Origin: Chromatiales bacterium
GTDB taxonomy: Bacteria; Pseudomonadota; Gammaproteobacteria; JAGRGH01
Assembly (NCBI GenBank): GCA_020445605.1
Contig: JAGRGH010000037.1
Span: 108,354 to 172,353, forward strand
Length of the DNA: 64,000 nt
Direction: 5' to 3'
Shown piece by piece: positions 1,342-64,000 of this stretch (the first letter of the stretch is position 1; every line of letters starts with the position of its first letter). Both the position numbers and the translations under genes were made by a program. The notes below the pieces were generated by a model. It worked only from the letters and a program-made list of their open reading frames with translations, was not told the DNA's origin and did not search any database.

Positions 1342-1352
1342 ACCACCCCGCC

Positions 1353-20270: not shown

Positions 20271-20371
20271 GACAAGTCGGGGCGGCGGCGCGCGCGTGGG
20301 TGGCGCGTGCCAAGGCTGCCGACAGGAACGAACGGAAGCATAAGCACTGCAACTATTGAGCGAGACGAGCG

Positions 20372-21799
20372 ATGAACACGACGACAAGCAATCTCAGGAC
20401 GCGTGCCGGCGCCGCAATGATCGGCCTGGTACTGGCCGGTGCAGCCCTGCAGGCGCCAGCAGCGCTGTTGGGCGTGAACCCGGGCTATCCACAGATTCAG
20501 GCCAACGGTGCGCCGGGCGGCCTGACCTACGATGCCACGACGGATCTGTTCTCGGCGGTGGCGCCGGGCGGTTCCGCTCGTTTCAGTGCGGCCAACTCTC
20601 CGGTTCCGGTGCTCGGTGGCACGATCACCATGAACATCGTGGTTGATGGCTCGGGGGCCTTGGTCGGCGGTGTTCCGGGCAACGACCTCGTTGTCACCGG
20701 CACGATCCCGGCCGCTGGCGGTTTCCCGATGTCGTTCAGCGGCACCCTGATCACCGGCGAAGTGACCGCGTTCGGCTTCCTGAACAGTGGTGCGACAACC
20801 GACAACTTCGATCTGCGTTTCACGGTCACCGGCGGCGCGCTGGCGACCTATTACGCGAACAAGGACATCGGCGTGAAACTGTTCGTCGAGCAGTCGACGT
20901 TCAACGATTTCACGGTGAACTTCTCCGGTCTGCCGAAGTTCACGATCGGGCCGATTGCTGCGCCGCCGGCGATCCAACTGCTGAAGCAGATCAGCGTGGA
21001 TGGTGGCGCGACCTGGGCGGACGCCGACAACGTCGGTGACCTTGACGTGCCGACCGTGCCTGCACCGAGTGGTGCGCAGTATCGCTTCATTGTCACCAAC
21101 ACCGGTGGCGTGGACCTCGTCGATGTCGTGCTGAACGACGCCACTCTGGGCCTGGTGAACGTGCCGCTGCCGGGTGGTTCGCTGGCGGTCGGTGAGTCCG
21201 TCACGATCGACAGCGGCTATTCGGGCTTCGAGCCGATGGATGTCGCCGAGCGCTGCAACGATGCCGGCGTGTTCATCAACACCGCAGACGTGAGTGGCAG
21301 CTCGTCAGAGGACGGCACGGTCGTGACCGACGAAAACCCGGCCGTGATGGTCTGCACCTACACCCCGCCGTCGGGCGGTGGCGGTGGCCAGGGCTGCACC
21401 CCCGGTTACTGGCGTCAGCCGCAGCACTTCTGGGCTTGGACGGCGCCGTACACCCCGGACACCCTGTTTGGTGATGTGTTCGAGGATGCGTTCCCCGGCC
21501 AGACCCTGCTGGATGTGGTTCGCATCGGCGGCGGCGGTCTGAATGCTCTGGGTCGGCACACGGTTGCGGCGCTGCTGAATGCCGCGATCGGAGATGTGTC
21601 CTACGACCTGACGCCGGCGGAGGTCATCAATGCCTTCAACGACCTGTATCCGGGTTCCAACGGCGACTACGAGCCCTGGAAGAATCAGCTCGACACCTAC
21701 AACAACCAGGGGTGTCCGCTGAACAACGGGACGGGCTTCGTTGAGGACACCTCGACGTTGACGACCGAAACCGGGATCGGAAAAGGCAAGAAGAAGTAG
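20372..21799 (+). CDS. secreted multidomain protein (novel N-module, DUF11-like Ig repeat, Cys-bounded C-terminal domain)
   Basis: 475 aa with a signal peptide (...LQAPAA/LLG). The N-module is about three-quarters identical by eye to that of the next gene. The Ig-like repeat reads ISVDGGATW...YRFIVTNTGGVDL. The C-terminal domain starts GCTPGYWRQPQHFW and ends ...NNQGCP. Confidence 0.75.
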   Translation: MNTTTSNLRTRAGAAMIGLVLAGAALQAPAALLGVNPGYPQIQANGAPGGLTYDATTDLFSAVAPGGSARFSAANSPVPVLGGTITMNIVVDGSGALVGGVPGNDLVVTGTIPAAGGFPMSFSGTLITGEVTAFGFLNSGATTDNFDLRFTVTGGALATYYANKDIGVKLFVEQSTFNDFTVNFSGLPKFTIGPIAAPPAIQLLKQISVDGGATWADADNVGDLDVPTVPAPSGAQYRFIVTNTGGVDLVDVVLNDATLGLVNVPLPGGSLAVGESVTIDSGYSGFEPMDVAERCNDAGVFINTADVSGSSSEDGTVVTDENPAVMVCTYTPPSGGGGGQGCTPGYWRQPQHFWAWTAPYTPDTLFGDVFEDAFPGQTLLDVVRIGGGGLNALGRHTVAALLNAAIGDVSYDLTPAEVINAFNDLYPGSNGDYEPWKNQLDTYNNQGCPLNNGTGFVEDTSTLTTETGIGKGKKK

Positions 21800-21969
21800 C
21801 AGAATGGGCGATGCGGGCCCCGGGACGACCGGGGTCCGCGTCCACCGATAACTGGATGTCACGCCAGGTGCCGGGTGGGCGCGCAGGCGTGAAAGGGAAT
21901 CGCGAACGGACAGCGCGAGAAACAAGAAGCCGGCGGATGAACCGCCCTTTCTCTAAAGCGAGAACTGAA

Positions 21970-25391: not shown

Positions 25392-26650
25392 TGCACGGGC
25401 CGGCATTGTTTGGATCGCTAACGGGTTTGCACCTGGCCCTGCTGCAGTTCTGTTACTTCTTTCTGCTGCTCGTCAACGTGACATCGACGTATGTCACTTA
25501 CATGTCGATCGTCGTGTCGTGGATGCTCGGCACACTGCTCGGCCTGTGGATCGGATGGCTCAGGCCATTGCCGATGTTCGTTGCGGGGGGCGTCGCGTAC
25601 TACCTGGTCTATGCGCTGGTGATTGCCCAGCCGCTGTGGCCATTGACGCTGCCGATCGCCTGCGTGGGCGTGGTGATCACCGGCCTGTGGGCCGGGCGGT
25701 TTTTCGTCGAGATGCGGCCGTATTTCCGCGGCGTCGATCGCCTGTTCTTTCACGAGAACAACGGTTTCCTGTTCGGCGTGATCGCCGTGTTTGTCGGGTT
25801 CTCGCTCGGTGGCCTGCCGTTCCTGCTGGGCGCCCCGCTGGTTTCGGCGATCGTGCTGTTCGTGTATCTGCGCTGGCTGCTGTCGCGGCGCGACGCGCTG
25901 GCGCAGGCGATCGCTGGCGTGGATTCGTCCGCGGCTGCGGATCACGCAGCCTCGGGTCGCCTGGCCGGATCGCTCGCGGGCGCGTTCAATGGGCTCGTCG
26001 CGGCGGCGGGGCTCGGCGCATTCGGCCTGCCGCTGGTCTATCTGCTCGCGTTTGCAACCAGCGGTCGCACGATGATGGTTTCCGTGCTCGCCGAAGGCAG
26101 CGGCGTCGTATGGCTGGCGGTGGCGTGCTGGCTCGCTGCCGCGCTGGTCGCGGCCTTTGAGCTCACATCGACTACCCGGGCGCGCTCCACGTGGCCCCTG
26201 TGGCTGTTCGCGCTGTGGGCGGTGCTCGCGGCGATTCACCGTGCCCTGGGCTGGCAGCCGTTCGCTCTGCTCTCGATCTCTGAAACGTCGTCGGCCCTGC
26301 TCTGGGTGTTCGCAAGCCTCGCCGTCCTGGCCTCGCTGGTACTAGGCACGGCCGCGCGCCGACCGCGTATGTATCTCGGCCTCGGTCTGCTTCTCGTTGC
26401 GCTGGCACTGGTACTTTCCTCCGGCGTTGCAGTGCCCGATGACGAAGAGCGCGATTCGCTAGAGGCATTGGCGCGGCTCGCGGAGATGTTCGGTGCCTGG
26501 CTCACGCTGGCCGGGGGTGTGAGCCGACTTACCGATACGGCGCGGTCAGCTCCAGAAGTGACGTCTGAGCCGGAGCCTGAGCCAGCGTCTGACTCCGAAC
26601 CTGCTCCCGAGCCGGACCTTCCCGACGCCGTGACACCCGCCAACGCATGA
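25391..26650 (+). CDS. polytopic membrane protein, function unknown
   Basis: 419 aa. The TGATG junction overlaps the previous stop by 1 nt. It has roughly 10 or more hydrophobic helices and an acidic Pro/Glu-rich C-terminal tail (SEPEPEPASDSEPAPEPDLP). Confidence 0.62.
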   Translation: MHGPALFGSLTGLHLALLQFCYFFLLLVNVTSTYVTYMSIVVSWMLGTLLGLWIGWLRPLPMFVAGGVAYYLVYALVIAQPLWPLTLPIACVGVVITGLWAGRFFVEMRPYFRGVDRLFFHENNGFLFGVIAVFVGFSLGGLPFLLGAPLVSAIVLFVYLRWLLSRRDALAQAIAGVDSSAAADHAASGRLAGSLAGAFNGLVAAAGLGAFGLPLVYLLAFATSGRTMMVSVLAEGSGVVWLAVACWLAAALVAAFELTSTTRARSTWPLWLFALWAVLAAIHRALGWQPFALLSISETSSALLWVFASLAVLASLVLGTAARRPRMYLGLGLLLVALALVLSSGVAVPDDEERDSLEALARLAEMFGAWLTLAGGVSRLTDTARSAPEVTSEPEPEPASDSEPAPEPDLPDAVTPANA

Positions 26651-27432
26651 TCGACCCGAACCTGCCGCAACCGCACGCCCCGGCGGATACCGCTACGCTG
26701 CATGCGCTCGGTCGCCATGCGCGCCTGCTCATGTTTGTTATCGTTGTCGTGAATGTTGCGCTTCCGCTCGGCAACTGGGCCTGGTCGGCGCTGCACGATC
26801 GTCCGCTGTGGACGATGTATCGCGGCGATCTGACGCCGGTCGAATGGTGGTCGAGCATGCAGCTGTTGCTGGTCGCGTGGATTGCCCTGCTGGTCGGCAT
26901 GCTCGGACGGCATGCTCGCGATGCCGGTGTTGGCGCGGACATCGCGCCGCACAATGCACTGTGGGGGCTTGTCGCGATTGGTTTTGTCGTGCTGTCGCTC
27001 GACGAGGCCTTCGACGTTCACGAGGCGATCCGTGACGAATTCATCGCCCCGTCCGGCTGGTTCACGCACTACGACTGGCTGCTGAATGGCGACATCGTGC
27101 TGCTGGCCGTGTTCGCGATTGCGCTTCTGCTGCTACCGGTGTTTTTCCGGGCGTTCGGTGATCGACGGACCCGCGGCTTTCTTTTGCTGCTGCTCGCGTT
27201 GGTGGTGGTGTTGCCGGCCCTGGTCATCGATGCGATGGCCGATAGCCATATCGTCAGGCTGCCCGACTGGCGGTTCTGGGACTACGTCTACGAGGAACAG
27301 GCCGAAGCCGTCGCGGCGGGCCTCATCGCACTGGCATTCCTCGATGTTCTGCGTGCCCGGGCGCGCGAATTGCTGGGCTTGCTCGGCAACGACGACGGAG
27401 ACCCTGCGGGGCAGGCCGCCGAATCACACTAG
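26647..27432 (+). CDS. polytopic membrane protein, function unknown
   Basis: 261 aa with an ATGA overlap with the previous gene. It has about 6 helices and contains LSLDEAFDVHEAIRDEF. Its TAG stop (27430-27432) lies inside the terminal CTAG of the downstream repeat element. Confidence 0.62.
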   Translation: MIDPNLPQPHAPADTATLHALGRHARLLMFVIVVVNVALPLGNWAWSALHDRPLWTMYRGDLTPVEWWSSMQLLLVAWIALLVGMLGRHARDAGVGADIAPHNALWGLVAIGFVVLSLDEAFDVHEAIRDEFIAPSGWFTHYDWLLNGDIVLLAVFAIALLLLPVFFRAFGDRRTRGFLLLLLALVVVLPALVIDAMADSHIVRLPDWRFWDYVYEEQAEAVAAGLIALAFLDVLRARARELLGLLGNDDGDPAGQAAESH

Positions 27433-27865
27433 GGCCTGTTCACACTACGCTTGGCGCAGCGTTGCTGCCCCAAAATACGTCAGGCAAGGCGCGAGGAGAG
27501 AGGTTTGGCGTGTCTAACAGGTCGCTGAAAAAGGCCCATCCCTGGCCTTTTCAACGTCGCAACCGAAAAGCGCGGTTTTCGGTTGCTCACGAAAATCAAA
27601 CACTTGAGTGTTCGATTTTCGGGCGAGACGTCCCTGTCTCGCGATGTCAGGCTGTTGAGATGAGAATTTCAACAGCCTGCTCAATGAACGACGAACAACG
27701 CAGCATGACGGATTTTGGGGCGCAACCCCTCGGGACGGGGCCGTTGTGGTGGCCAACCGCGTTGCGGTTCGCTGATGTACGTCAAGTACACTGCGCTCAC
27801 AGCGCCTTGTTGGCCACAACAACGGCCACCGTCGCTGCGTCACCCGTAGTGTGAACAGGCCCTAG
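27429..27865 (+). mobile_element. MITE-like, TIR-bounded multi-hairpin element (full-length copy A)
   Basis: It has perfect 21-nt inverted termini (27429-27449 and 27845-27865) and nested inverted repeats. Five consecutive hairpins lie at 27526-27678 and a long hairpin joins 27739-27756 with 27810-27827. There is no credible ORF. Partial copies occur at 37538-37719 and 53424-53577. Confidence 0.7.
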
Positions 27866-27872
27866 GAATCCC

Positions 27873-28607
27873 ATGCGGCAGATCGTTCTGGATACCGAGA
27901 CCACGGGGCTTGATACGCAACAGGGTCACCGCATCATCGAGATCGGTTGCGTGGAACTGGTTTCGCGGCGTCCGACCGGCAACGATTTTCATCAGTACCT
28001 GAATCCGGAGCGCGAGATCGACGCCGGCGCCGCGGAGGTGCATGGCATCACGCTGGCGGACCTCGCCGGCAAGCCGCGCTTTTCGGACATTGCCCCGGAA
28101 CTGGTCAAGTATCTCGCGGGCGCCGAGGTCATCATCCACAACGCGCCGTTCGATGTGGGATTTCTCGACCATGAGTTCCACCACTGCGGTCTGTCCGAGC
28201 GCATCGCGAGCCTGTGCACGGTCGTCGATACACTGACGCTGGCACGCGAGATCCATCCCGGCCAGCGCAACAGCCTGGATGCGCTGTGCAAGCGCTACGC
28301 GGTGGACAACACCGGTCGCGATCTGCACGGCGCGCTGCTCGACGCACGCCTGCTGGCCGATGTCTATCTGGCGATGACCGGCGGTCAGGTTGCGCTGAGT
28401 TTCGACCAGCCCGCGGAGTCGACCGGCGGTGCCGTGGCGAATGCCGTGCCGGATCCCGCTGCGCAAGGCACGCACCGAGTGACATCGCGTGCGCGACTCA
28501 CGGTGGTCCGCCCGACCGCTGTCGAGTTGGAGGCCCATGAGCGAAGGCTCGACGAGATCGAAAAATCCAGCGGTGCCGTGGTGTGGAGACAGATTGAGCC
28601 TGTTTAG
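27873..28607 (+). CDS. dnaQ: DNA polymerase III epsilon subunit (3'-5' proofreading exonuclease)
   Basis: 244 aa. It has the DEDDh exonuclease motifs (IVLDTETTGL, IIHNAPFDVGFL, HGALLDARLLADVYL). Confidence 0.92.
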   Translation: MRQIVLDTETTGLDTQQGHRIIEIGCVELVSRRPTGNDFHQYLNPEREIDAGAAEVHGITLADLAGKPRFSDIAPELVKYLAGAEVIIHNAPFDVGFLDHEFHHCGLSERIASLCTVVDTLTLAREIHPGQRNSLDALCKRYAVDNTGRDLHGALLDARLLADVYLAMTGGQVALSFDQPAESTGGAVANAVPDPAAQGTHRVTSRARLTVVRPTAVELEAHERRLDEIEKSSGAVVWRQIEPV

Positions 28608-37537: not shown

Positions 37538-37719
37538 CTTGGGCCTGAAATTCCCGCGCCTTGCGGCCCGGGCCGCCTGCGCGGATCAGAGCTTTCCGCG
37601 GCACGGGGAAGTGCCGCCACAACGACGGCTGCAAGCCGTTGAGAATGAAAGAAAACGAAAAATCACATTTCTTTGTTTTCGGTGCTCTGGCAATCCGGGG
37701 CAGACTGAACAGGCCCTAA
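37538..37719 (-). repeat. short degenerate copy (C) of the multi-hairpin element
   Basis: On the minus strand it starts TTAGGGCCTGTTCAGTCTGCCCC (compare copy A, CTAGGGCCTGTTCAC...CTGCCCC). The other end, CTTGGGCCTGAAA, is a degenerate TIR. Internal landmarks (CCGCCACAACGACGGC, a GAAAACGAAAAA hairpin) are collinear with copy A in reverse orientation. Confidence 0.5.
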
Positions 37720-38573
37720 TTCAGCCGCGCAACGCTGTGCTTGAGATTCGCCACCCGCTGGCGAATCTCGGTGTGATCGCCAATGTCGTGGGATACCAGC
37801 AGATAGCGTTCGTAGTCCGCGAGTGCCGCACGGGCACATTCCATCTGCTCGTAGATGACACCGCGGTCGCGGATCTCGATCGGCAGGTCCGGCGTGAGCG
37901 CGAAGATCATTGTGCTGATTTCCAGCGCCTTGCCGTAGAGGTGCTGGTGGAAATAGATGCCCTTCAGGTTGCGCAGCCAGCGCAACAGCAGATCGCGTTT
38001 CGAACAGGCCCTCAGGAGATCCGGCAGCGTTTCCGGGTCGAACTCGGATTGACTCTCGTTTTCGCCGTCCTCGACGAGCAGGGCGATGAGGGCGTCGTCG
38101 TCCAGCATGCGTCCCTCGCCGAACGGATCGATGATGATCTCGCCGGCGGGTGATACATGTTTGACGAGAAAACGCTGCGGAAACGAGATCCCGGCCAGCG
38201 GCAGTCCGAGTCGCATGCCGACTTCTAGATAGACGAGCGAAAGCGAGATCGGGATCCCTTCGCGCCGATCCAGCACCTCGTTCAGATAGCTGTTGCGTGG
38301 ATCGTAATAGGCGTTCTGCGCGGGGTGAAATCCGTTTTCGCGAAACAGGTATCGCGACAGTGTCTGCACCTGCATGACCGGTGGCAGGGTGTCGCGAAAC
38401 ACCGGTGCGAGTCCGTCGGCGAGTCGGTCCAGCTCCGCGAGGTAGTGGGCCGGGTCGATCTCCGGGTATGCGTGCCGGGCGATTTCGAGCGCGGCGCGGG
38501 CCAGATCGATCTGCGCGTCCGCAGCGGCAACCACTTCGCGAAAGCCGTCCAAGGCCCGCTCGGCGGGCTTCAT
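37716..38573 (-). CDS. sirB1: SirB1/YchA-like transglutaminase-core plus TPR protein
   Basis: 285 aa. An N-terminal UPF0162-like region (...[26 protein letters not shown]...) is followed by C-terminal TPR-like helices. Confidence 0.72.
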
Positions 38574-52816: not shown

Positions 52817-53302
52817 TCAGTAACGACCGTGGGTCTTGGTGATGTAGTTGTTGAGTTCGACGAACTGCGAATTCATGCGGTGCAGGATGTCGTGCACCGA
52901 GCGCGCGATGTTCTGCATCAGGCGGTAGACCAGCCAGGGGTCGCGGTCGACGAGTTGTTCGACACTGGCGCGGTCGATGCTGCAAACCGCTGTCGGTTCC
53001 ATCGCGCGCAGGCTCGCCGAATGTGCGTGATCGTCGACAAAGCCAAGCGCACCCGCCATGTCGCCGGGTTTGAGCATGGCCAGGGTCAGGCCCTGGCCGC
53101 CACCGGTATCGCGGGTCACGGCGAGACAGCCGGTGACGACGACATGCACGCTTGCGTCGACCTCGCCTTCGGTCAGCAGCACCTCGTCGCGGACCAGATC
53201 ACGGTGACAGGCGAGCTCTGCGAGCGCCGCCACCTGTGCGTCGGTCAATCGGGCGGTCAGGGGTGAGTGCCGCAGGGCCTCGATCGTAGCCGTCGTATCC
53301 AT
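52817..53302 (-). CDS. cyclic-nucleotide-binding domain protein (no DNA-binding domain)
   Basis: 161 aa. It has a cNMP-binding beta-roll (...GDMAGALGFVDDHAHSASLRA...) and no C-terminal HTH. Confidence 0.78.
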   Translation of the reverse strand: MDTTATIEALRHSPLTARLTDAQVAALAELACHRDLVRDEVLLTEGEVDASVHVVVTGCLAVTRDTGGGQGLTLAMLKPGDMAGALGFVDDHAHSASLRAMEPTAVCSIDRASVEQLVDRDPWLVYRLMQNIARSVHDILHRMNSQFVELNNYITKTHGRY

Positions 53303-53423
53303 GGGATTGGTTCCAGGGGATCAAACCGATCCCCATGCTACCGGGCTACGGCCGGCACGCATTGATCCAGCGCATGCGCAACTCCGGCCAGCCGGGACGG
53401 ACGGACAGGGGCGCGACCTGACG

Positions 53424-53577
53424 GGCTGTTGAATTCTCATTTCAACCGCCTGATCACGCGAGACCGGGACGTCTCGCCCGAAAATCTAACATGCAAGTGT
53501 TTGATTTTCGTGAGCAACCGAAAACCACCCTTTTCGGTCGCGAGGTTGAAAAGGCCATGGAAACGCCTTTTTCAACA
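53424..53577 (-). repeat. core-only copy (B) of the multi-hairpin element
   Basis: The reverse complement aligns along its length with 27524-27678 of copy A, covering the same five hairpins. It begins 6 nt after the recN stop codon. No terminal inverted repeats are present. Confidence 0.72.
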
Positions 53578-53582
53578 ACCCG

Positions 53583-55247
53583 CTAATGCGGATGCGCACG
53601 TTCGAGCATCTCGGCCGCATGTGCGCGGGTCTGCTCGGTGATTTCCGCGCCGCCGAGCATGCGTGCGATTTCACCCGTACGCTGCTCGGGTTCGAGCGTC
53701 TGCACGCTGGTTTCGGTACGACCATCGCGCACCTGCTTGTCGACCCGCAGGTGGGCGTGTCCATGCACCGCGACCTGCGGCAGGTGGGTGACGCACAGGA
53801 CCTGGCGGTTCGCGCCGAGCCGTCGCAGCAGGCGCCCGACCTGTTCGGCGACGCGCCCGCCGACGCCGGCGTCGACCTCGTCGAAGATCAGGGTCGGCAC
53901 GCTCGAGGCCGCCACGGTCGCGACCTGCAACGCGAGGCTGATGCGGGAGAGTTCGCCGCCCGAGGCGATCTTGTGGATCGGACCCGGCGCGTGACCGGGA
54001 TTGGTGGCGACCATGAAGCGCGCCCGCTCGGTGCCGGTCGCGCTGCGCTCGGCGCGCGGTTCGAACTCGATCGCAAGCCGCGCCTGGGACATGCCGAGTT
54101 CGCCGAGCAGTGCCTCGACTTCGGCGCTCAGGCCGAGCGCGGCTTCGCGCCGCCGCCGTCCGAGCGCGGCTGCGAGACCATCGTATTGCTTCGCCAGGGC
54201 TTCGACCTGCGCGCGCAGGGTGTCCAGGCCCTGTTCGCCGGCGTCCAGGTCCGCCAGTTCCGCAGCGAGTTCCGCATGCCGCGCGAACAGATCGCCGGCC
54301 CGCACGCGATGTTTGCGCGCCAGGGTGTGGATGCAGTCCAGCCGCTGTTCTACGGTCTGGATGCGGGCGTCGTCGGTTTCCAGGCGGTCGAGATAACGAC
54401 GCAGGTCGGAGCCGGCCTCATCGAGCGCAATGACTGCGCCATTGACGGTCTGCGCGATGTCTTCGAGCCCGGCATCCAGCCCGGCCAGCTCGCGCAGCCG
54501 CTCCGCCAGGGTTGCGAGCTGCCCGCGCGGGCCGTCGTCCGCGTCCAGCGCGTCCATGGATTGTCCGCCCTCGCTGAGCAGCCGCTCGAGGTTCGACAGC
54601 CGGGCATGCTCCGCACCGAGCTGCTCGAATTCATCGGTGCCGAGGGCCAGTTCGTCGAGTTCGTCGACCTGGAAGCGCAGCAGGTCGCGATGTTCGGCGC
54701 GCGCTTGGGCGGACTGTTCGCGCCTCTGAAGCAGCTCGTTCGCCTGAGCCCACTCGGCAAAGCAGTCGGCGAGTGCCCGGGCTTCGCCCTGCAGCGCGCC
54801 GTAGTGATCGAGGCGACGCAGTTGCTCGACCGGTGCGGCCAGCGACTGGTGGGTGTTCTGGCCGTGGATGTCGACGAGCAGCGCGCCGAGTTCGGTCAGT
54901 GTGGCGATCGGTACCGGCGCACCATTGACGAATCCGCGCGAACGCCCATCGGCGCCGACCACGCGACGCAGCAGGCATTCGCCCTGGGCATCCAGTTCGC
55001 GGGCGGCGAGCCAGTCGAGGATGCCGGACCGCTCGCTGATGTCGAAGACCGCGCTGATGTCGGCGCGCGCGGCGCCGGTGCGCACCGTCGTGCGGTCGGC
55101 GCGCGCGCCCATCGCCAGCAGCAGCGCGTCGATCAGGATCGACTTGCCGGCACCGGTTTCGCCCGACAGCACCGTGAGCCCTGGGCCGAGTTCCAGACTC
55201 TGGCTGCTGACCACGGCCAGATCGCGGATTGCGAGACTGATCAGCAT
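53583..55247 (-). CDS. recN: DNA repair protein RecN
   Basis: Trimmed to the ATG at 55247, giving 554 aa. It has the Walker A motif GETGAGKSILIDAL, a long coiled coil, and the C-terminal SMC signature (SGGELSRISLAL, FDEVDAGVGG). Confidence 0.93.
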   Translation of the reverse strand: MLISLAIRDLAVVSSQSLELGPGLTVLSGETGAGKSILIDALLLAMGARADRTTVRTGAARADISAVFDISERSGILDWLAARELDAQGECLLRRVVGADGRSRGFVNGAPVPIATLTELGALLVDIHGQNTHQSLAAPVEQLRRLDHYGALQGEARALADCFAEWAQANELLQRREQSAQARAEHRDLLRFQVDELDELALGTDEFEQLGAEHARLSNLERLLSEGGQSMDALDADDGPRGQLATLAERLRELAGLDAGLEDIAQTVNGAVIALDEAGSDLRRYLDRLETDDARIQTVEQRLDCIHTLARKHRVRAGDLFARHAELAAELADLDAGEQGLDTLRAQVEALAKQYDGLAAALGRRRREAALGLSAEVEALLGELGMSQARLAIEFEPRAERSATGTERARFMVATNPGHAPGPIHKIASGGELSRISLALQVATVAASSVPTLIFDEVDAGVGGRVAEQVGRLLRRLGANRQVLCVTHLPQVAVHGHAHLRVDKQVRDGRTETSVQTLEPEQRTGEIARMLGGAEITEQTRAHAAEMLERAHPH

Positions 55248-55308: not shown

Positions 55309-56178
55309 TCAGCCCCAGCGCAGCTTCGCGCGCAGGACCGAGAAGTAGTCGTACTCCGGCAGGTGCAGCAGGCGCACCCGCTCGCGCTTGCGCACGACCC
55401 GCACGCGGGCGCCCGTCGGGACTTCGAATCCGGTCTGGCCGTCACAGGTCACGCGCGCGGTGTTCGCCATGGCGTCCGCGACTGTGATCTCGATGGGTTC
55501 ATCGCCGCTCACGACCAGTGGCCGGTTGCTGAGTGTGTGCGGGCAGATCGGCACCAGCAGCGTCGCGTCGAGCTGCGGTTCGAGGATCGGGCCGCCACCG
55601 GACAGCGCATAGGCCGTCGACCCGGTCGGGGTCGAAACGATCAGTCCGTCGGCGCGCTGGCGATTCAGGAACCGTCCGCCGATGGTGGTTTCCAGTTCGA
55701 TCATCCGCGCCGTGCCCCACTTGTGCACGACCACGTCGTTGAAGGCGTCGGCACGGCTCACCGCGTGACCCTCGTGCTCGATCTCGCAGGCGAGGATGGA
55801 GCGACGTTCCTCCAGGAATTCGCCGTCGAGGATGCGTTCGAGGCTGGTTTGCATGTCGCCAGCCGAGATCTCGGCGAGAAATCCGAGGCGACCCAGGTTG
55901 ACGCCCACCAGCGGCACGTCCGTCGCGAGCATCGCCCGTGCGCAGTGCAGCAGCGTGCCGTCGCCACCCAGTACGATGGCGAGGTCCACACGCCGGGCGA
56001 GTTCATCGATTGGCAGACCGGTCGTGCCGGCCTGCGCACAGCAGGCGGCCGTGGTCTCCTCGAACAGGACCTTGGGCACGCGCGTGCCCAGCCAGCCGGC
56101 GAGCGCGGCCAGCGCGCCGCTGACACGCGGGTCCTCCGGTTTTCCGATCAGCCCGATGCTTTGAAAGCGTGACGCCAT
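55309..56178 (-). CDS. nadK: NAD+ kinase
   Basis: Trimmed to the ATG at 56178, giving 289 aa. It has the motifs GGDGTLL and ...STPTGSTAYALSGGGPI.... Confidence 0.9.
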   Translation of the reverse strand: MASRFQSIGLIGKPEDPRVSGALAALAGWLGTRVPKVLFEETTAACCAQAGTTGLPIDELARRVDLAIVLGGDGTLLHCARAMLATDVPLVGVNLGRLGFLAEISAGDMQTSLERILDGEFLEERRSILACEIEHEGHAVSRADAFNDVVVHKWGTARMIELETTIGGRFLNRQRADGLIVSTPTGSTAYALSGGGPILEPQLDATLLVPICPHTLSNRPLVVSGDEPIEITVADAMANTARVTCDGQTGFEVPTGARVRVVRKRERVRLLHLPEYDYFSVLRAKLRWG

Positions 56179-56251
56179 GGCTTGATTTCCCGAGATGTTC
56201 CAGACACTAGCACGGCGATCCGGTCGTTCCAACTGTGCGCACGGAGGCGTT

Positions 56252-56761: not shown

Positions 56762-56842
56762 CTGCGTCGCTGCTCGGTAGCGTGCCCTGAGCGATCCGGG
56801 TTCGATCGCTAAGCGGCTGTTTTCCAAGGAATCATCACGCAT

Positions 56843-57895
56843 TTGTCGAATCTGAGGCCAACACTCACGGATCGTCAGCAGCACCTGCTGAAGGTGCTGG
56901 TCGAGCGTTATATCGAAGACGCGCAGCCGGTCGGATCGCGCTCGCTCGCGCGCGATTCCGGGCTTGATCTCAGCCCCGCGACGATACGCAACGTCATGGC
57001 CGATCTGGAAGACCTCGGCCTGGTCAGTTCGCCGCACACCTCGGCGGGGCGCATTCCCACGGTTGCCGGCTACCGGATCTTTGTCGATTCTCTGGTGACC
57101 TGCCGGCCGGTCGACGATGCATCGGTGCGTGAGCTCCGCTCCGTGCTGCGGGCCGACATCATTTCGTCCGGCGAGCTGCTCGCGCGTGCCTCGCAGATGC
57201 TCTCGGGCGTGACGAACCTGGCCGGTCTGGTCATGGTGCCACGCCGATCGCGCGTTGCGTTCCGGCATATCGAGTTTCTGCCGCTGGCCGGTAACCGCGT
57301 GCTGGCGATCCTCGTGACCGACGAGCGCGAGGTCCATAACCGCATCCTGCATACCGATCGTGACTACGCCGCCGCCGAGCTGGAGCAGGCGGCAAATTTC
57401 CTGAATCAGCAGTACGCCGGTCGCGACCTGAACAGCGCGCGGGAGCAGCTGATTCGGGAACTGCGCGCCACGCGCGAGCACATGAACGAACGCATGGCCT
57501 CGATCATCGCGATGGCCGAGCAGGTCATGGGTGTCGAAGGCGAGGCCGATTCCGGCGACTATGTGCTGAGCGGTCAGACCAACCTCATGCAGATCGAGGA
57601 CCTCGCCGACATGCGGCGCCTGCGCGATCTGTTCGAGGCCTTCACCGAGAAACAGCAGATCCTGCACCTGCTGGAGAAATGCGTGCAGGCGAACGGCGTG
57701 AAGGTGTTCATCGGCGAGGAATCCGGCTACCAGCCGCTCGATGGATGCAGCGTGGTCGCCTCGCAGTACCAGGTCGACGGCGAGGTCATCGGCGTGCTCG
57801 GCGTGATCGGGCCGACGCGCATGGCCTACGATCGGGTCATCCCGGTCGTCGACATAACCGCGCGCCTGCTCAGCGCGGCCTTGAAACAACCCTAG
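56843..57895 (+). CDS. hrcA: heat-inducible transcription repressor HrcA
   Basis: 350 aa with a TTG start. It has the N-terminal winged helix (LLKVLVERYIEDAQPVGSRSLA...SPATIRNVMADLEDLGL) and lies upstream of grpE-dnaK. Confidence 0.92.
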   Translation: MSNLRPTLTDRQQHLLKVLVERYIEDAQPVGSRSLARDSGLDLSPATIRNVMADLEDLGLVSSPHTSAGRIPTVAGYRIFVDSLVTCRPVDDASVRELRSVLRADIISSGELLARASQMLSGVTNLAGLVMVPRRSRVAFRHIEFLPLAGNRVLAILVTDEREVHNRILHTDRDYAAAELEQAANFLNQQYAGRDLNSAREQLIRELRATREHMNERMASIIAMAEQVMGVEGEADSGDYVLSGQTNLMQIEDLADMRRLRDLFEAFTEKQQILHLLEKCVQANGVKVFIGEESGYQPLDGCSVVASQYQVDGEVIGVLGVIGPTRMAYDRVIPVVDITARLLSAALKQP

Positions 57896-57971
57896 CCGGC
57901 CCCAGCTTCCCGCAAACCCGTTTTCCGCCGGCCGTCGTGCCGTGCGCCCGTGTATTTCTCTGGAGGAACGA

Positions 57972-58529
57972 ATGCCGGACCAGGACCCCACCGCGGTCGA
58001 TCCGTCGAGATCCAATGCGAGCCCCGCCGACGCCACGCCGTTCGATACGCCGGCCGGGGCCGAGGCCGCCGATGCCCGACTCGCCGCCGCCGAGCAGGAG
58101 GCCGCCGATCTGCGTGATCAGCTGCTGCGGCTGCGTGCCGAAATGGACAATCTGCGCAAGCGCCAGCAGCGCGAGCTGGACGCGGCGCACAAGTACGCCG
58201 GCGAGCGTTTTGCCAGCGAGCTGCTGCCGGTGCGCGATTCCATGGAACTCGGCTGGCTGACCATCGCGGACGACGCCGCGGACATCACCAAGGTGCGCGA
58301 GGGCTACGAGCTGACCATCCGCCAGCTCGACGTCATGATGGAGAAGGTCGGGCTGGAGCCGGTCGACCCCGAGGGTCTGCCCTTCGACCCGGAGCGGCAC
58401 CAGGCAATGGCGACCGAGCCGAGCGCGGAACTCGCGCCGAACACGGTCGTGAAGGTCTACCAGAAGGGCTGGCTGCTGCACGACCGGCTGCTGCGCCCGG
58501 CCATGGTCGTGGTCTCGACCCGGCCATGA
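57972..58529 (+). CDS. grpE: nucleotide exchange factor GrpE
   Basis: The ATG at 57972 follows a GGAGGA RBS. It contains a coiled coil (LRAEMDNLRKRQQRE) and the C-terminal beta domain (...KGWLLHDRLLRPAMV). Confidence 0.9.
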   Translation: MPDQDPTAVDPSRSNASPADATPFDTPAGAEAADARLAAAEQEAADLRDQLLRLRAEMDNLRKRQQRELDAAHKYAGERFASELLPVRDSMELGWLTIADDAADITKVREGYELTIRQLDVMMEKVGLEPVDPEGLPFDPERHQAMATEPSAELAPNTVVKVYQKGWLLHDRLLRPAMVVVSTRP

Positions 58530-58539
58530 GGCGTGCCGG

Positions 58540-58567
58540 GTTGAAAGAGCAAGCCTAAACCCCAGAT
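58540..58567 (+). promoter_or_regulatory. sigma32-type heat-shock promoter for dnaK
   Basis: GTTGAAA (58540-46), a 13-nt spacer, then CCCCAGAT (58560-67). This compares with the consensus CTTGAAA-N13-17-CCCCATNT. It lies about 77 nt upstream of the dnaK ATG. Confidence 0.6.
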
Positions 58568-58643
58568 TCCGTGGCATTGGTGTCATCCGAACCGACACCG
58601 CCCAAGACACATAATCAGTTAATTTCAGGAGCTGACGAAGCAC

Positions 58644-60560
58644 ATGGCCAAGATCATCGGTATCGACCTCGGCACCACGAACTCGTGCGTGGCCGTGATG
58701 GAGGGCGACAAGCCCCGCGTCATCGAAAACAGCGAAGGCGCCCGTACGACGCCCTCGATCGTCGCGTTTACCGACGACGACGTGCTCGTCGGCCAGTCGG
58801 CCAAGCGTCAGGCGGTCACCAACCCGACCAACACCCTGTTCGCGATCAAGCGACTGATTGGCCGGCGCTTCACCGACGATGTCGTGCAGCGCGACATCAA
58901 GATGGTGCCCTACAAGATTGCCAAGGCCGACAACGGCGACGCGTGGGTCGAGGTCAAAGGCAAGAAGATGGCGCCGCCGGAGGTCTCAGCGCGCGTGCTC
59001 ATGAAGATGAAGAAGACCGCCGAGGACTATCTCGGCGAGACCGTCAGCGAGGCCGTGATCACGGTGCCGGCGTATTTCAACGACGCCCAGCGCCAGGCGA
59101 CCAAGGACGCCGGCAAGATCGCCGGGCTGACGGTCAAGCGCATCATCAACGAGCCGACCGCCGCCGCACTGGCCTACGGCATGGACAAGAAGCGCGGCGA
59201 TGCCAAGATTGCCGTGTACGACCTGGGCGGCGGCACCTTCGACATCTCGATCATCGAGATTGCCGAGATTGACGGTGAGCACCAGTTCGAGGTGCTGTCG
59301 ACCAATGGCGACACCTTCCTTGGTGGTGAGGACTTCGACCTGCGCATCATCGACTACCTCGCCGACACGTTTAACAAGGAACAGGGCGTTGATCTGCGCG
59401 GTGACCCGCTCGCGATGCAGCGCCTCAAGGAGGCCGCGGAAAAGGCCAAGATCGAGCTGTCGTCGAGCCAGCAGACCGACATCAATCTGCCGTACATCAC
59501 GGCGGACAAGTCCGGTCCGAAGCACCTCAATGTCAAGCTTACGCGTGCGAAGCTGGAGTCCCTGGTCGAGGACCTGATCGCGCGCACGATCGAGCCGTGC
59601 AAGATCGCCGTGAAGGATGCCGGCCTGTCCATGTCCGAGATCGACGACATCATTCTCGTCGGCGGTCAGACGCGCATGCCCAAGGTTCAGGAGATCGCGA
59701 AGAACTTCTTCGGCAAGGAACCGCGCAAGGACGTGAATCCGGATGAGGCCGTTGCTGTGGGCGCCGCGGTGCAGGCCGCCGTGCTGTCCGGCGAGGTCAA
59801 GGACGTGCTGCTGCTTGATGTCACGCCGCTGTCGCTCGGGATCGAGACCCTCGGTGGTGTCATGACCAAGCTCATCGAGAAAAACACGACCATCCCGACC
59901 AAGGCCCAGCAGGTCTTTTCGACCGCTGACGACAGCCAGACGGCGGTCACCGTGCATGTGCTCCAGGGTGAGCGCGAGCGTGCGGCCGACAACAAGTCGC
60001 TCGGGCGCTTCGATCTCTCGGACATCCCGCCGGCGCCGCGCGGCGTGCCGCAGATCGAGGTGACTTTCGATATCGATGCAAACGGCATCCTGAACGTGTC
60101 CGCGAAGGACAAGGCCACTGGCAAGGAGCAGAACATCGTGATCAAGGCCTCGTCCGGGCTTTCGGACGACGAGGTCGAACGCATGGTGCGCGATGCCGAG
60201 TCGCATGCCGAGGAAGACCGCAAGTTCCACGAGCTGGTCACTGCGCGCAACCAGGCCGACAATCTCGTGCATGCGACCCGCAAGTCGCTGAAAGACCTGG
60301 GCGACAAGGTCGCCGCTGCCGAAATGGCCGAGGCCGAGGATGCGATCAAGGCGCTCGAGGAAGTCCTCAAGGGCGACGACAAGGACCAGATCGACGCCAA
60401 GGCCCAGGCGCTCGCAACAATTGCCGGCAAGCTCGCCGAACAGGCGTATGCGAAAGCCGGCGGCGATGGCGCCGAAACTGAAACGGCCGGCGCGAAGAAG
60501 GCTGCCGGCGACGATGTCGTCGACGCGGAGTTCGAGGAGGTCGACGACCGCAAGTCCTGA
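58644..60560 (+). CDS. dnaK: molecular chaperone DnaK (Hsp70)
   Basis: 638 aa with unmistakable Hsp70 signatures ([29 protein letters not shown]). Confidence 0.98.
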
Positions 60561-60581
60561 ACCGAGCGGACGCGCGAAACC

Positions 60582-60628
60582 GGCCCCCGGTTGCCGAGCC
60601 ATCTGGCTCGGTGGCCGGGGGCCTTTTT
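60582..60628 (+). terminator. rho-independent terminator after dnaK
   Basis: An outer stem, GGCCCCCGG...CCGGGGGCC, encloses CCGAGCCatctGGCTCGG. TTTTT follows. Confidence 0.78.
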
Positions 60629-60709
60629 GTGCGCCCTGCGGTTCGCGGCTATGATTCCACGGCAGACTATGGCGGGCGGGGCGATGGACTGCGGAGTGTC
60701 CGATCACTG

Positions 60710-62749
60710 ATGAGCGTTTCCGGTCGCATCGAAACCGCGTCGAGTCCCGAGACAGCGCCGGCGCTCTCGCCGCTGGCGCGGATCATCTATGCGCACCTCG
60801 ATGCGCAAGGTGTGGTGCGTGTCGCTTCGGACGGATTCGCGCACTGGTTCCAGCGCAGCGTTCGCGGGATCACCGGGCTGCCGCTCGACAAGGTCGTGGA
60901 CCGCCGCCATTTCGATGCCGTGCGCGGTTTTCTGCACGATCCGGTCACCCTGGGCAGGGTCGAGGTCGACGAGCCGCTGCCGCGTCCGGTCGGATCGAAC
61001 CGTCGTGCACGGTTTACCTACCTTCCTCAGTTCGCGTCCGGTTCGTGTTTTGGTTTCCTCGTCATCGCCGCCGATGTCTCGGCGCCGGCCGAGCCGGAAA
61101 CGGATGCCGCCTGGGGGCCCGATTTCGAACATTGCGCGGCGGTGCCGACCGTGGTGCTGCGGCGCGGGGCGCCGGATTCCCAGGTGCTGCATGCGAACGC
61201 CGCGTTCGGCGCCCTGAGTGGCCTGGACCCGGCGCGCCTGGGCGGCATGAGACTCGACCCCGGCGCCTGCCGCTGGCTCACTGCGGAGTCCACCGAGCGC
61301 CTGTGCGCGGCCGTGTCCCAGGGCCAGGCAACGAGCCTGGTGCTGCGCGCGCGCCAGTTCGGAACCGGCATTCCGCAATGGGTCGAGGCCGATCTGCTGC
61401 CACACCCCGAGGCCGGTGACCTCGTGTTCGCGGGCGTGCGCGACAGCTCGCGCGAACGTGAGCTCGTGCTGATTCAGCAGGACCTAGAGCGGCGGGTCAG
61501 CGAACGCACCAGCAAGCTCATGCAGACCACCCGCCGGTTGCAGACCGAGATCGCCGAGCGCGAGCGCGCCGAGCAGCGCGGCCGCCAGACCGAGGCGCGG
61601 GCCCGCGAGGCCGAGCGGCGTGCGCAGCTCGGCACTTGGACCTGGCTGGTCAGTTCCGATGAGATCTACTGGTCGAATGAGATCTATCAGCTGCTCGGTA
61701 TGAACGTCGAGCAGTTCGACCGCCGGTTTCGGGCGCTGGTGGATGCCGCGCAAGCCGACGACCGCGGGCGCGTGGATGCCGCCATCACGGCCCTCATCAA
61801 CGAGCAGCGCGGCTTTGATCTGGAATTTCGCATCGTCCGACCGGACGGCGAGGAGCGCACCCTGCGTGCGACGGCGGTGCGGGACGATGGTGCGGCCGGC
61901 GCGATCGAAATGACTGGCACGGTGCAGGATGTGACCTACCACCGCCGGCTCGAGGAGCAGGCCGCGTTGCAGCAGGCGCAGCTGGTGCAGGCCAATCGGC
62001 TCACGGCGCTCGGTACGCTGGTGTCGTCCATGGCGCACGAGGTCAACAACCCGAACAGCATGATCGCGATCAACGCACGCATCATCGCCACGGCCTTGAA
62101 CGATCTTGAACCCGCGCTGGTGGCCTGGGCGGGACAGCACCCGGACTGGCAGATCGCCGGCATTCCGCACGCCGAGCTGCGCGACCAGCTGCCCGGGCTG
62201 GTCGGCGATATCGTCGAGGGCGCGCGGCGCATCTCGGCGCTGGTCGAAAATCTGCGCGGCTTCACACGGCCGCAGCCCGAGCGCGCATTCGCGCTGTTCG
62301 ATGTCAACGAATCGGTGCACGGCGCCGTGCGGTTGCTCGATCGTGCGATCCGTGAGGCAACCGATGACTTTGCACTCGGGCTCGATGACGCACTTCCGCC
62401 GCTGCTCGGCGATCGCCTGCAGATCGAACAGGTGCTGGTCAATCTCATGATGAATGCGCTGGAGTCGCTGCCGGCGCGCGATTGCGCGGTGCGGGTGGAG
62501 ACCGCAATCGAGGCCGGCCGGCTGATGCTGCGCGTGCGCGACCGCGGAATTGGTCTGCCGCAGGCGCTGGGGCTGCGGGTGTTCGACCCGTTTGTGACGA
62601 CCAAGGCGGAGCGGGGCGGCACGGGGCTGGGACTGTCGATTTCGCGCACCATCGTCGAGGCACACGGCGGCAGCCTGAGTCTGAGCCCGGATGCGGCGGG
62701 TGGCACGCTCGCCGAGGTGACGCTGCCACACGCGGAGACGAGGCAATGA
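60710..62749 (+). CDS. PAS-domain sensor histidine kinase
   Basis: Trimmed to the ATG at 60710, downstream of the dnaK terminator. It has PAS-like segments (...GTWTWLVSSDEIYWSNEIYQLLG...), the H-box SSMAHEVNNP, the N-box NLMMNALES and the G-box GTGLGLSISRTIVEAHGG. Confidence 0.85.
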   Translation: MSVSGRIETASSPETAPALSPLARIIYAHLDAQGVVRVASDGFAHWFQRSVRGITGLPLDKVVDRRHFDAVRGFLHDPVTLGRVEVDEPLPRPVGSNRRARFTYLPQFASGSCFGFLVIAADVSAPAEPETDAAWGPDFEHCAAVPTVVLRRGAPDSQVLHANAAFGALSGLDPARLGGMRLDPGACRWLTAESTERLCAAVSQGQATSLVLRARQFGTGIPQWVEADLLPHPEAGDLVFAGVRDSSRERELVLIQQDLERRVSERTSKLMQTTRRLQTEIAERERAEQRGRQTEARAREAERRAQLGTWTWLVSSDEIYWSNEIYQLLGMNVEQFDRRFRALVDAAQADDRGRVDAAITALINEQRGFDLEFRIVRPDGEERTLRATAVRDDGAAGAIEMTGTVQDVTYHRRLEEQAALQQAQLVQANRLTALGTLVSSMAHEVNNPNSMIAINARIIATALNDLEPALVAWAGQHPDWQIAGIPHAELRDQLPGLVGDIVEGARRISALVENLRGFTRPQPERAFALFDVNESVHGAVRLLDRAIREATDDFALGLDDALPPLLGDRLQIEQVLVNLMMNALESLPARDCAVRVETAIEAGRLMLRVRDRGIGLPQALGLRVFDPFVTTKAERGGTGLGLSISRTIVEAHGGSLSLSPDAAGGTLAEVTLPHAETRQ

Positions 62750-64000
62750 ATCTGCAAGTCGCGGCCAATCCGTCGGGTCCGGTGGCCCCGATTCTGCTGG
62801 TCGACGACGAGCCGGCGCTGCTCAAGGGCCTGGCGCTGACCCTGCGCAGTGCCGGGTTCGAACGGGTCGACACCATCGAGGACTCGCGCCTGGTCGTCGC
62901 GCGGCTCGAGGCGGCGCCGGTCGCGGCCGTCGTGCTCGATCTCACGATGCCCTATCTCGACGGCGAGACGCTTTTGCGACGCATCGTCGAACGGCACCCC
63001 GAGGTGCCGGTCGTGATCGTCACGGCCACCAACGATGTCGATACGGCGGTGCGCTGCATCCGTGCCGGGGCGGTGGACTACCTCGTCAAACCGGTGGAGC
63101 CCGACCGGCTCATTGCCGCGGTCGCGCGTACGCTGGAACTGCGCGAACTGCGCGGTGAGGTCGAACGCCTGCGGTCGAGCCTGCTCGAGGAGCGAGAGGC
63201 GCGGCCCGCGGCGTTCGCGCCGATCCTGACCCGCGACCCGGTGTTGGATCGACTGCTGCGCTACGTCGAGGCGATTGCGCCCTCGGCACAGCCCGTGCTG
63301 ATCACCGGCGAGACCGGGGTCGGCAAAGAACTGATCGCGCGGGCCGTGCATGAACTGTCCGGACGTGCGGGCCCGCTGGTCAGCGTGAACGTCGCGGGCA
63401 TCGACGATCAGGTGTTCGGCGATACGCTGTTCGGGCATCAGCGCGGTGCATTCACGGGGGCGGATGCAAACCGGCGCGGACTGATCCGTGAGGCCGGCGA
63501 GGGCACCGTGTTCCTCGACGAGATCGGCGATCTCGGCGCGGCCTCACAGGTCAAGCTGCTGCGTCTGCTTCAGGACGGCCAGTTCTATCCGCTCGGCGCG
63601 GATCGGCCGGAGCGCAGTCGGGCCCGGTTTGTCGTTGCGACGAATCGGCCGCTGGACGACTCCGGAGAGCAGTGGATGCGTCGGGATTTGTATTTCCGGC
63701 TGCGCACCCACCGGGTGCATGTGCCGCCGCTACGCGAACGGCGCGACGATCTGAAACTGCTCGTCCCGGCCATGCTCGCGCGCGCAGCACGCGAACTCGG
63801 CCGCACGGTGCCGGTGGTGCCGCCGGAGATCTTTGCGCTGCTCGGGGCCTATGAGTTTCCGGGCAATGTGCGCGAACTCGAATCGCTGCTGCACGACGCC
63901 GTTGCGCGCCACGAGCGCGGGGTACTGTCGCTCGAGAGTCTGCGTGCGGCGATCGGAGGACGGGCCGACAGCGAGCTGGGCGAACACCCGGCTGCATGGG
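62746..64000 (+). CDS. sigma54-dependent response regulator (NtrC family), 3'-truncated by the window edge
   Basis: This is not in the ORF track because there is no stop before the window end; the translation is my own. The start has an ATGA overlap with the kinase stop. It has a receiver domain (ILLVDDEP, DLTMPYLDG, VKP), AAA+ Walker A (GETGVGKELIARAVH) and the sigma54-contact motif GAFTGA at 63445-63462. Confidence 0.88.
   Translation, partial: MNLQVAANPSGPVAPILLVDDEPALLKGLALTLRSAGFERVDTIEDSRLVVARLEAAPVAAVVLDLTMPYLDGETLLRRIVERHPEVPVVIVTATNDVDTAVRCIRAGAVDYLVKPVEPDRLIAAVARTLELRELRGEVERLRSSLLEEREARPAAFAPILTRDPVLDRLLRYVEAIAPSAQPVLITGETGVGKELIARAVHELSGRAGPLVSVNVAGIDDQVFGDTLFGHQRGAFTGADANRRGLIREAGEGTVFLDEIGDLGAASQVKLLRLLQDGQFYPLGADRPERSRARFVVATNRPLDDSGEQWMRRDLYFRLRTHRVHVPPLRERRDDLKLLVPAMLARAARELGRTVPVVPPEIFALLGAYEFPGNVRELESLLHDAVARHERGVLSLESLRAAIGGRADSELGEHPAAW

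Follow-up and report, generated by a model that had tools for sequence, protein, structure and literature searches.

What is the strongly structured, non-coding sequence that lies directly behind recN in an uncultured sludge bacterium, and does it serve the gene it follows or its own spread? The sequence was found in a 64,000-nt stretch of contig JAGRGH010000037.1 from a Chromatiales bacterium (hereafter the window), in which the first-pass annotation, made from the letters alone, had described three copies (A, B and C) of a five-hairpin core. It had proposed for them a role as a structure of the 3' untranslated region (3'-UTR) of host genes, i.e. as a terminator, an RNase barrier or the source of a small RNA (sRNA). 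Our analysis leads to a different answer: we consider it probable, at roughly 85%, that copy B, the one behind recN, is one of the resident copies of a high-copy, non-coding and non-autonomous transposable element of the miniature inverted-repeat type (MITE) with ends of the IS5 family. The host belongs to a gammaproteobacterium-like, uncultured lineage from activated sludge, and its RecN shows 50% identity to that of the best GTDB species representative.

That copy B repeats the core of copy A was confirmed by blastn, in which its reverse complement (about 53424-53580) and the stretch 27520-27678 were 87.3% identical across 158 nt (E 1e-51). We aligned the window copies with divergent relatives by MAFFT and built a covariance model, R1; copy B scores 142.7 bits against it, over model positions 1-162. 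The limits of the copy had to be revised. It extends over 53422-53582 (161 nt) instead of 53424-53577, and no gap of 6 nt separates it from the recN stop codon TAG (53585-53583), which it follows immediately. It had been said to lack terminal inverted repeats, yet it possesses its own, CGGGTTGTTGAA and TTCAACAGCCCG, 12-13 nt long and recovered as pair I3 of an inverted-repeat search. The stop codon makes up the last three bases of the left flank, and the copy as inserted reads TTAG[CGGG...CCCG]TCAG. No gene was called over the element, and two of its translated frames found no homologue in the protein database.

The ends turned out to be widespread. A search with a pattern consisting of the ends only, CAGGYTGTTGAAA-N120-150-TTCAACAGCCTG, gave matches at at least 120 loci, and among the matches listed these hold 123 elements of 145-175 bp, mostly of 150-152 or 160-162 bp. 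The 4-nt flanks are identical in 82 of the 123 (about 0.4% would be expected by chance) and differ by one mismatch, as in copy B, in another 26. The identical flanks conform to YTAR in 73 of the 82 cases (CTAG 35, TTAG 19, CTAA 15, TTAA 4). Since flank positions 1 and 4 co-vary between the two sides, the duplication comprises 4 bp and not merely TA. The same ends are shared by elements with other cores in Planctomycetota (L199, L236, L238, L270), and genomes differ widely in how many copies of the same-end class they carry. The cultured isolate Microbulbifer sp. TYP-18 has about 30 or more copies of the element. We also encountered these ends with other cores in Nitrospirota, Desulfobacterota, Myxococcota, Alpha- and Betaproteobacteria, Spirochaetota and Fibrobacterota. 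There are same-end elements whose 5' end is followed directly by its own inverted copy (CAGGCTGTTGAAAAACAGCCTG), and two Paenibacillus matches are bordered on both sides by AAAAGT, which is not YTAR. Pairs of terminal repeats 0.6-4 kb apart in MITE loci were considered as candidate insertion sequences and rejected, being merely neighbouring MITEs.

An autonomous counterpart emerged from a blastn search of plasmids with a Pseudomonas copy, which hit one end of an insertion sequence on plasmid pT173b of Ensifer canadensis (NZ_CP083372.1, 49730-51269). This 1540-bp insertion sequence is bounded by CAGGCTGTTGAAAAAGGCCC...CTTCAACGGCCTG with CTAG on both sides, and encodes a 367-aa transposase of the IS5 family (NF033581, 265 bits against a cut-off of 140; domains DUF772 and DDE_Tnp_1). 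A second open reading frame (ORF) of 114 aa (L298, 4192-4536), with no match in Pfam or NCBIfam, follows the transposase gene directly and reaches almost to the right end. In a set of 79 loci encoding relatives of the Ensifer transposase, the two ends are spaced about 1.50-1.53 kb apart at 49, and 44 of these 49 elements possess identical flanks (CTAG 36, CTAA 5, TTAG 3). The consensus ends of the small element, CAGGYTGTTGAAA(AAGGCC) and TTCAACAGCCTG, are those of the Ensifer insertion sequence and of its 49 relatives of ~1.5 kb. IS5 is known to duplicate YTAR (PMC5009759), and transposition has been shown for the IS5-related MITEPsy1, whose end is GGAAGGTCTGAAAAAGCC and which duplicates 4 nt, CTAG/YTAA (PMC3189936).

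The abundance of the element was estimated in the source metagenome as summed contig word depth at at least 80% identity, with contigs of four sludge runs mapped on copy B. Depth is about 10 in the flanks of copy B and 1000-1900 between 53432 and 53580 (119 contigs); at copy A it is about 11 in the flanks and 1000-3000 over the five-hairpin element, i.e. about 90-270 times the flank, with edges that are sharp at the terminal repeats. Between 119 and 235 contigs cover the region, and many assemblies end inside the element. The element is present in roughly a hundred or more copies. The consensus flanks of the other copies in this metagenome read CTTAG followed by CAGGTTGT (CTTAG-CAGG) on one side and CCTG followed by CTAA or TTAA on the other. 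We also saw internal-deletion variants there, in which 40, 52 or 58 nt are missing at short repeats (TTTTCGG, for instance; mapped on 27575-27650 and 53433-53585), and one head-to-tail junction, from 53585 to 53433, in other contigs. Searches for the core by its letters were negative: the invariant 22-mer TTTTCGGTTGCTCACGAAAATC had 0 matches in species-representative genomes, JGI metagenomes and IMG/VR, a gapped hairpin pattern of the family core gave only chance matches in contig collections, the family-specific core was absent from the plasmid collection search, and the ~8.7 kb beyond the window hold no further copy. IS5-type ends, a 4-bp YTAR duplication and a small, non-coding body in many copies are features of a MITE derived from or mobilised by IS5-family insertion sequences, and the element displays these three.

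Copy A, which as inserted reads CTAA[CAGG...CCTG]CTCA, offers a view of the state before insertion. In two contigs, representing about 4-5 genome equivalents, a joint from 27516 to 27683 carries the surrounding sequence without copy A; it skips 166 nt (162 + 4) and leaves a single CTAA (GTGT-CTAA-ATGAAC). This joint is the empty site of copy A, with a 4-bp duplication. The sequence around the copy, 27433-27861, itself reaches about 11-28 times the flank depth in contigs of the source metagenome, and hence copy A is nested in a second repeat of lower copy number. This outer element has CTAG on both sides (27429-27432 and 27862-27865), and its left CTAG holds the stop codon of the ORF 26647-27432. 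To it belong the long inverted repeats (27429-27470 and 27824-27865) that had been credited to copy A. Without its insert the outer element would measure about 263 bp, and with it the outer element takes up all of the 440 nt between the neighbouring genes. Both the empty site and the nesting of copy A, as read from assembled sequences, may be regarded as indirect signs of mobility.

The five hairpins themselves withstood closer inspection. The same five consecutive hairpins are predicted for copies A and B, and the folds are far more stable than those of dinucleotide shuffles: -80.5 kcal/mol (z -8.2) for the RNA of copy A, -78.3 kcal/mol (z -7.7) for the sense and -66.2 kcal/mol (z -5.9) for the antisense RNA of copy B, and z -6.8 for copy B as single-stranded DNA. 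Hairpin 1 takes in the inner part of the 5' terminal repeat, and the motif (A/G)TCC(A/G)T occurs in the loop of hairpin 1 as well as in that of hairpin 4. The claim that the two copies differ mainly outside the stems is borne out by the numbers, 7 of the 22 differences falling into 110 paired and 15 into 52 unpaired positions (odds ratio 0.17, p 3e-4).

A much wider comparison points in the same direction. The MAFFT alignment revealed the same modules, built from different stem sequences, in the window copies and their divergent relatives. Model R1 found 63 strong matches (at least 53.6 bits) in one orientation, with about 20-40 bits on the opposite strand. They come from Microbulbifer, Saccharospirillum, Steroidobacteraceae, Lysobacteraceae/Lysobacterales, Pseudomonas, Candidatus Muproteobacteria, Candidatus Azotimanducaceae and several unclassified Gamma-/Proteobacteria, and one of the unclassified sources (L214, L001) is the metagenome-assembled genome with the closest RecN. 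In 40 of the matches, 81.6% of the cells are paired (67.4% in shuffles), 41 of the 55 base pairs display compensatory double changes, and the covariation score is 0.312, compared with 0.107 in shuffles and 0.045-0.122 with slid partners; the alignment behind these values was itself fitted to the covariance model. Hairpin 1 (model helix 1) is 82% paired with double changes in 6 of 10 pairs, hairpin 2 (helix 2) has compensatory changes in 11 of 11 pairs, hairpin 4 (helix 5) in 7 of 7 pairs at 92% pairing, and hairpin 5 (helix 6) is 94% paired. When distinct copies were folded singly and independently, 44 of 59 formed exactly five hairpins (median z -7.6). In addition, 32 of 60 distinct copies contain a perfect consensus site for the integration host factor (IHF), WATCAANNNNTTR, in hairpin 3 at relative position 0.47-0.56; on the other strand it is found in 0 copies, and 0.2 would be expected by chance.

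The compensatory changes bear out the earlier suggestion that secondary structure is what is maintained, and the five hairpins with the central IHF-consensus site constitute a conserved core of this MITE class in Gammaproteobacteria. Neither Rfam nor the searchable literature yielded the class: Rfam 15 has no match in the window or in 15 loci with related elements, the sole match at E <=10 around copy B being RT-19 (E 4.4, below the gathering score of that family), and literature searches with terminal-repeat strings returned unrelated primers only. An apparent strand asymmetry, with A-C exceeding G-U mismatches by 98 to 53, vanished when one representative per genome was used (31 vs 31). The antisense strand has the lower minimum free energy in 53 of 59 copies, and we draw no claim about the strand from this.

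The distribution of substitutions indicates at which level the fold is maintained. In 27 copies from Microbulbifer, rare variants number 54 in stems and 13 in loops (110 paired and 51 unpaired positions), while the common, subfamily-defining variants number 18 and 20, respectively (odds ratio 0.30, p 0.0025). In the source metagenome, variants at a frequency of at least 10% are divided 2 to 7 between stems and loops (p 0.005), and low-frequency variants about 10 to 6. The first-pass annotation had stated that mutations striking stems as often as loops would count against its proposal, and this is precisely how rare and private variants behave. Because the common variants avoid stems and the rare ones do not, the fold is filtered in propagating lineages and not at each locus. 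It looks as if the fold is needed for the spread of the element and not for recN.

Table 1. Positions of the elements, their parts and the adjoining genes in the window.
Feature	Position	Strand	Remarks
Five-hairpin MITE copy B	53422..53582	-	161 nt; between recN and the gene for a cyclic-nucleotide-binding-domain protein
Copy B, left 4-nt flank TTAG	53583..53586	-	YTAR target; read from sequence
Copy B, right flank TCAG	53418..53421	-	second copy of the target duplication, one mismatch to TTAG; read from sequence
Copy B, 5' terminal inverted repeat CGGGTTGTTGAAA	53570..53582	-	family consensus CAGGYTGTTGAAA; pair I3
Hairpin 1, TTGAAAAAGGC / GCCTTTTCAA	53546..53575	-	RNA and DNA folds; loop contains TCCAT
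Hairpin 2, GCGACCGAAAA-GGGTGG-TTTTCGGTTGC	53514..53541	-	RNA and DNA folds
Hairpin 3, CGAAAATCAAACA...TGTTAGATTTTCG	53479..53510	-	RNA and DNA folds
Central IHF-consensus match AATCAAACACTTG	53494-53506	-	within hairpin 3; sequence match
Hairpin 4, GCGAGAC-GTCCCG-GTCTCGC	53458..53477	-	RNA and DNA folds
Hairpin 5, CAGGCGGTTGAAA with TTCAACAGCCCG	53422..53452	-	internal direct copy of the terminal repeat pairs with the 3' terminal inverted repeat; RNA and DNA folds
nadK	55309-56232	-	upstream of recN in minus-strand order
recN	53583-55247	-	full-length RecN, spanning 1-552 of the 553 profile positions of NF008121
Cyclic-nucleotide-binding-domain protein gene	52817-53302	-	downstream of copy B, followed by prpD
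Copy A	27518..27679	+	162 nt; covariance model 165.3 bits; nearer to the family consensus than copy B
Copy A, flanks CTAA and CTCA	27514-27517, 27680-27683	+	one mismatch
Outer MITE-like element, ends GGCCTGTTCACACTACG...	27433..27861	.	42-nt inverted repeat, 83% complementary; hosts copy A
ORF	26647-27432	+	261 aa, family not known, coding-type G+C at third codon positions; upstream of copy A
RNase T-like exonuclease gene	27873-28607	+	downstream of copy A
"Copy C", related element	37542..37715	-	right boundary approximate; end type GGCCTGTTCAG, as in the outer element

Gene calls upheld the description of recN as the neighbour of copy B and of the genes around copies A and B as co-directional; on the minus strand the order is nadK, recN, copy B, the cyclic-nucleotide-binding-domain gene and prpD. 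On the other hand, the window contains only two copies of the core and not three, as neither blastn nor an nhmmer profile made from copies A and B detected a third full copy in the 64 kb. What had been called copy C has another type of ends and modules resembling hairpins 2-4, and matches the covariance model only weakly (24.4 bits; fold z -3.9). The stop codon of the minus-strand gene 37716-38573 lies within its left flank TTAG (37716-37719). These features suggest that it represents a sister MITE family of related architecture.

Several observations concern other parts of the region. A heat-shock cluster (window positions 56800-64000 and L174 12037-15187) comprises hrcA-grpE-dnaK, a PAS histidine kinase, a sigma-54 response regulator, a gap of about 600 nt and dnaJ; no five-hairpin copy is present in this gap, which falls just beyond the edge of the window. 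A tandem array of the (GACAAG)n type at 23373-23629 codes for Asp-Lys repeats within the ORF 21745-23661, and this ORF and the ORF 20360-21799 are paralogous, with about 71-75% identity over 460 nt.

The explanation closest to the first impression of the locus is that of a host 3'-UTR module, transcribed together with the upstream gene and serving to end transcription, to block 3' exonucleases or to give rise to an sRNA. All three elements of the window do follow co-oriented genes immediately on the 3' side, each in a spacer whose neighbouring genes run in the same direction; the RNA folds have high stability; hairpin 1 consists of an A-tract, a G+C stem and a T-tract; and MITEs as well as repetitive extragenic palindromic (REP) sequences can influence mRNA (review: PMC10969869). 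A search of RNA runs retrieved none that contains the element, and the one run retrieved for a Microbulbifer copy lacked that organism. However, the position is accounted for by the choice of target. The window contains 48 YTAR sites (0.75 per kb), of which 26 are coding, 7 lie at stop codons and 15 are intergenic. Stop codons provide 7 of the ~19 sites where an insertion is not disruptive, and elements are found at three of these seven (27429, 37716 and 53583). In this genome of 66% G+C, 38 of 50 crude gene calls in the window end in TGA and 12 in TAG or TAA, and since YTAR is very rare, these TAG and TAA codons constitute a large share of the possible IS5-type targets. The 63 related copies agree with this: in 24 of 124 directions the duplicated site coincides exactly with the end of an ORF of at least 100 codons, compared with 6.6% at control YTAR sites of these loci (odds ratio 3.4, p 4e-6). 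Copies therefore stand directly 3' of genes because of YTAR target choice combined with the removal of disruptive insertions. Orientation, the other pillar of a 3'-UTR role, proved to be random in the same 63 copies, where the two orientations relative to incoming ORFs within 150 nt number 15 vs 18, 13 vs 16 and 12 vs 12 at three length thresholds, and where, of the genes whose ends fall in the duplicated site, 9 enter the element at its 5' end and 15 at its 3' end (p 0.31). The co-orientation in the window rests on two or three cases. An intrinsic (Rho-independent) terminator was rejected, as no terminator-like site was called on either strand of 53250-53700, of 27400-27900 or of a related copy (L185), and the T-run of hairpin 1 pairs with its A-run and is thereby consumed by the stem; nor was a promoter-like site called around either window copy or the related copy. 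The rare and private substitutions are not depleted in stems, and the equal numbers of G-U and A-C mismatches with one representative per genome do not point to a favoured RNA strand. A 3'-UTR module is in our opinion unlikely; the data can be accounted for without any function in recN expression.

We rate still lower the idea that the elements have been exapted by the host as architectural DNA, i.e. as IHF-binding, cruciform-prone sites that organise the nucleoid or insulate supercoiling domains, as has been proposed for the RIB/RIP BIMEs of E. coli, transposition being just the way in which they spread. The central position of the perfect IHF consensus on one strand only would fit such a role, and so would the fold being predicted equally in DNA, the symmetric mismatches, which suit a two-strand structure at the DNA level, and the high copy number. 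However, IHF binding is here predicted from the consensus, and such a site would be equally expected for the assembly of a transpososome; the ends of insertion sequences and MITEs often use IHF. Private stem mutations have not been removed, which argues against selection on resident copies, and the copy numbers differ strongly among genomes. As to REP/REPIN sequences moved by a RAYT (HUH) transposase, or integron attC sites, both would account for palindromic, intergenic, high-copy units just after ORFs, yet neither has terminal inverted repeats with co-varying 4-bp target duplications, as seen here, nor ends identical to those of DDE insertion sequences of the IS5 family. An attC site is moreover contradicted by the five separate hairpins, by ends unlike the core sites RYYYAAC/GTTRRRY, and by two copies that lie 26 kb apart beside housekeeping genes (recN and the RNase T-like gene) and not in a cassette array. 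We regard REP and attC origins as highly improbable. A Correia element was likewise rejected: the duplication is 4-bp YTAR and the ends are unrelated, the central IHF consensus alone being in common.

The MITE explanation leads to the following scenario. An IS5-family DDE transposase, supplied in trans, would bind the CAGGYTGTTGAAA ends, a 4-bp staggered cut would be made at a YTAR target, and the element of 161-162 bp would be inserted with duplication of the target; at recN the target was the TTAG that contains the stop codon TAG. The fold would be kept by selection on lineages that still transpose and not on each resident copy, and bending by IHF together with compaction by hairpins or a cruciform may help a 160-bp element to join its ends. 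Several points weigh against this explanation. Hairpins 1-5 are all missing from the subterminal parts of the Ensifer insertion sequence, and because the two share the terminal repeats only, the core is not a simple deletion derivative. The core would accordingly have an origin separate from the insertion sequence, which sets the element apart from a classical type I MITE; an element can be a MITE without such descent. The window and its 8.7-kb extension (73 kb) contain no transposase of the IS5 family with these ends, the flanks of each window copy differ by one mismatch, and the copy number could include related elements of other sludge organisms. Cut-and-paste transposition by a DDE enzyme gives no ready reason for compensatory intrastrand pairing. 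It is tempting to consider, quite tentatively, that the five-hairpin core with its central IHF site is an obligatory folded cis module of its own origin, working as single-stranded DNA, cruciform or RNA, which has come to sit on IS5-type ends and spreads horizontally among gammaproteobacterial orders, and that the fold and not the sequence is read by the transposition machinery or by a host factor.

For practical purposes, the element should be masked as a repeat in annotation and not be taken for a recN-specific regulator, and repeats of this kind explain the assembly breaks at these sites in the source organism. The case also illustrates how, in a GC-rich genome, YTAR targets can mimic a 3'-UTR function, stop codons being among the few harmless targets. 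A fold that is kept by compensatory change across several gammaproteobacterial orders, and is not in Rfam, makes the element a tractable case for studying what structure does in a DDE-type MITE, be it IHF-assisted synapsis, a cruciform or an RNA. If true, the requirement for a fold and not for a sequence would be undescribed for a derivative of a DDE transposon, and the element would be a structured non-coding parasite of IS5-family transposases.

Compared with known systems, the element is a MITE of a known kind and of a new family. Like the Correia elements of Neisseria (CREE/NEMIS), it is a high-copy MITE with a central IHF site and a strong fold, in the Correia case when transcribed, and often near genes, Correia elements measuring ~100-155 bp (PMC10969869); unlike it, Correia elements duplicate TA, have unrelated 26-bp ends and promoter elements, and are restricted to Neisseria (PMC10969869). 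SPRITE, BOX and RUP of Streptococcus pneumoniae are also small structured repeats that insert into one another and form intergenic clusters (PMC10969869), but their sequences are unrelated, and SPRITE has a canonical terminator-like hairpin, which the present element lacks. REP/BIME sequences, including the IHF-binding RIB/RIP, and ERIC resemble it as dispersed intergenic palindromes, mostly 3' of genes, with stems more conserved than loops and in some cases an IHF site. Terminal inverted repeats and a target duplication, absent from REPs, are both present here; REPs are thought to be moved by RAYT (HUH) enzymes. MITEPsy1 of Pseudomonas syringae, related to ISPsy2, is closer: it is likewise non-autonomous, has the end GGAAGGTCTGAAAAAGCC, compared with CAGGTTGTTGAAAAAGGCC here, and duplicates CTAG/YTAA (PMC3189936). 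It is shorter (100 vs 161 nt), its end differs in detail, it exists in a handful of copies as against ~100 or more, and no five-hairpin core has been reported for it. Finally, the IS5-family insertion sequences of Ensifer pT173b and its ~1.5-kb relatives in Hyphomicrobiales have the same repeats, CAGGCTGTTGAAAAAGGCC...TTCAACAGCCTG, and the same 4-bp duplication of CTAG, CTAA or TTAG; the element differs from them in having no transposase, in its size of 161-162 bp and in possessing the five-hairpin core in addition to the shared ends.

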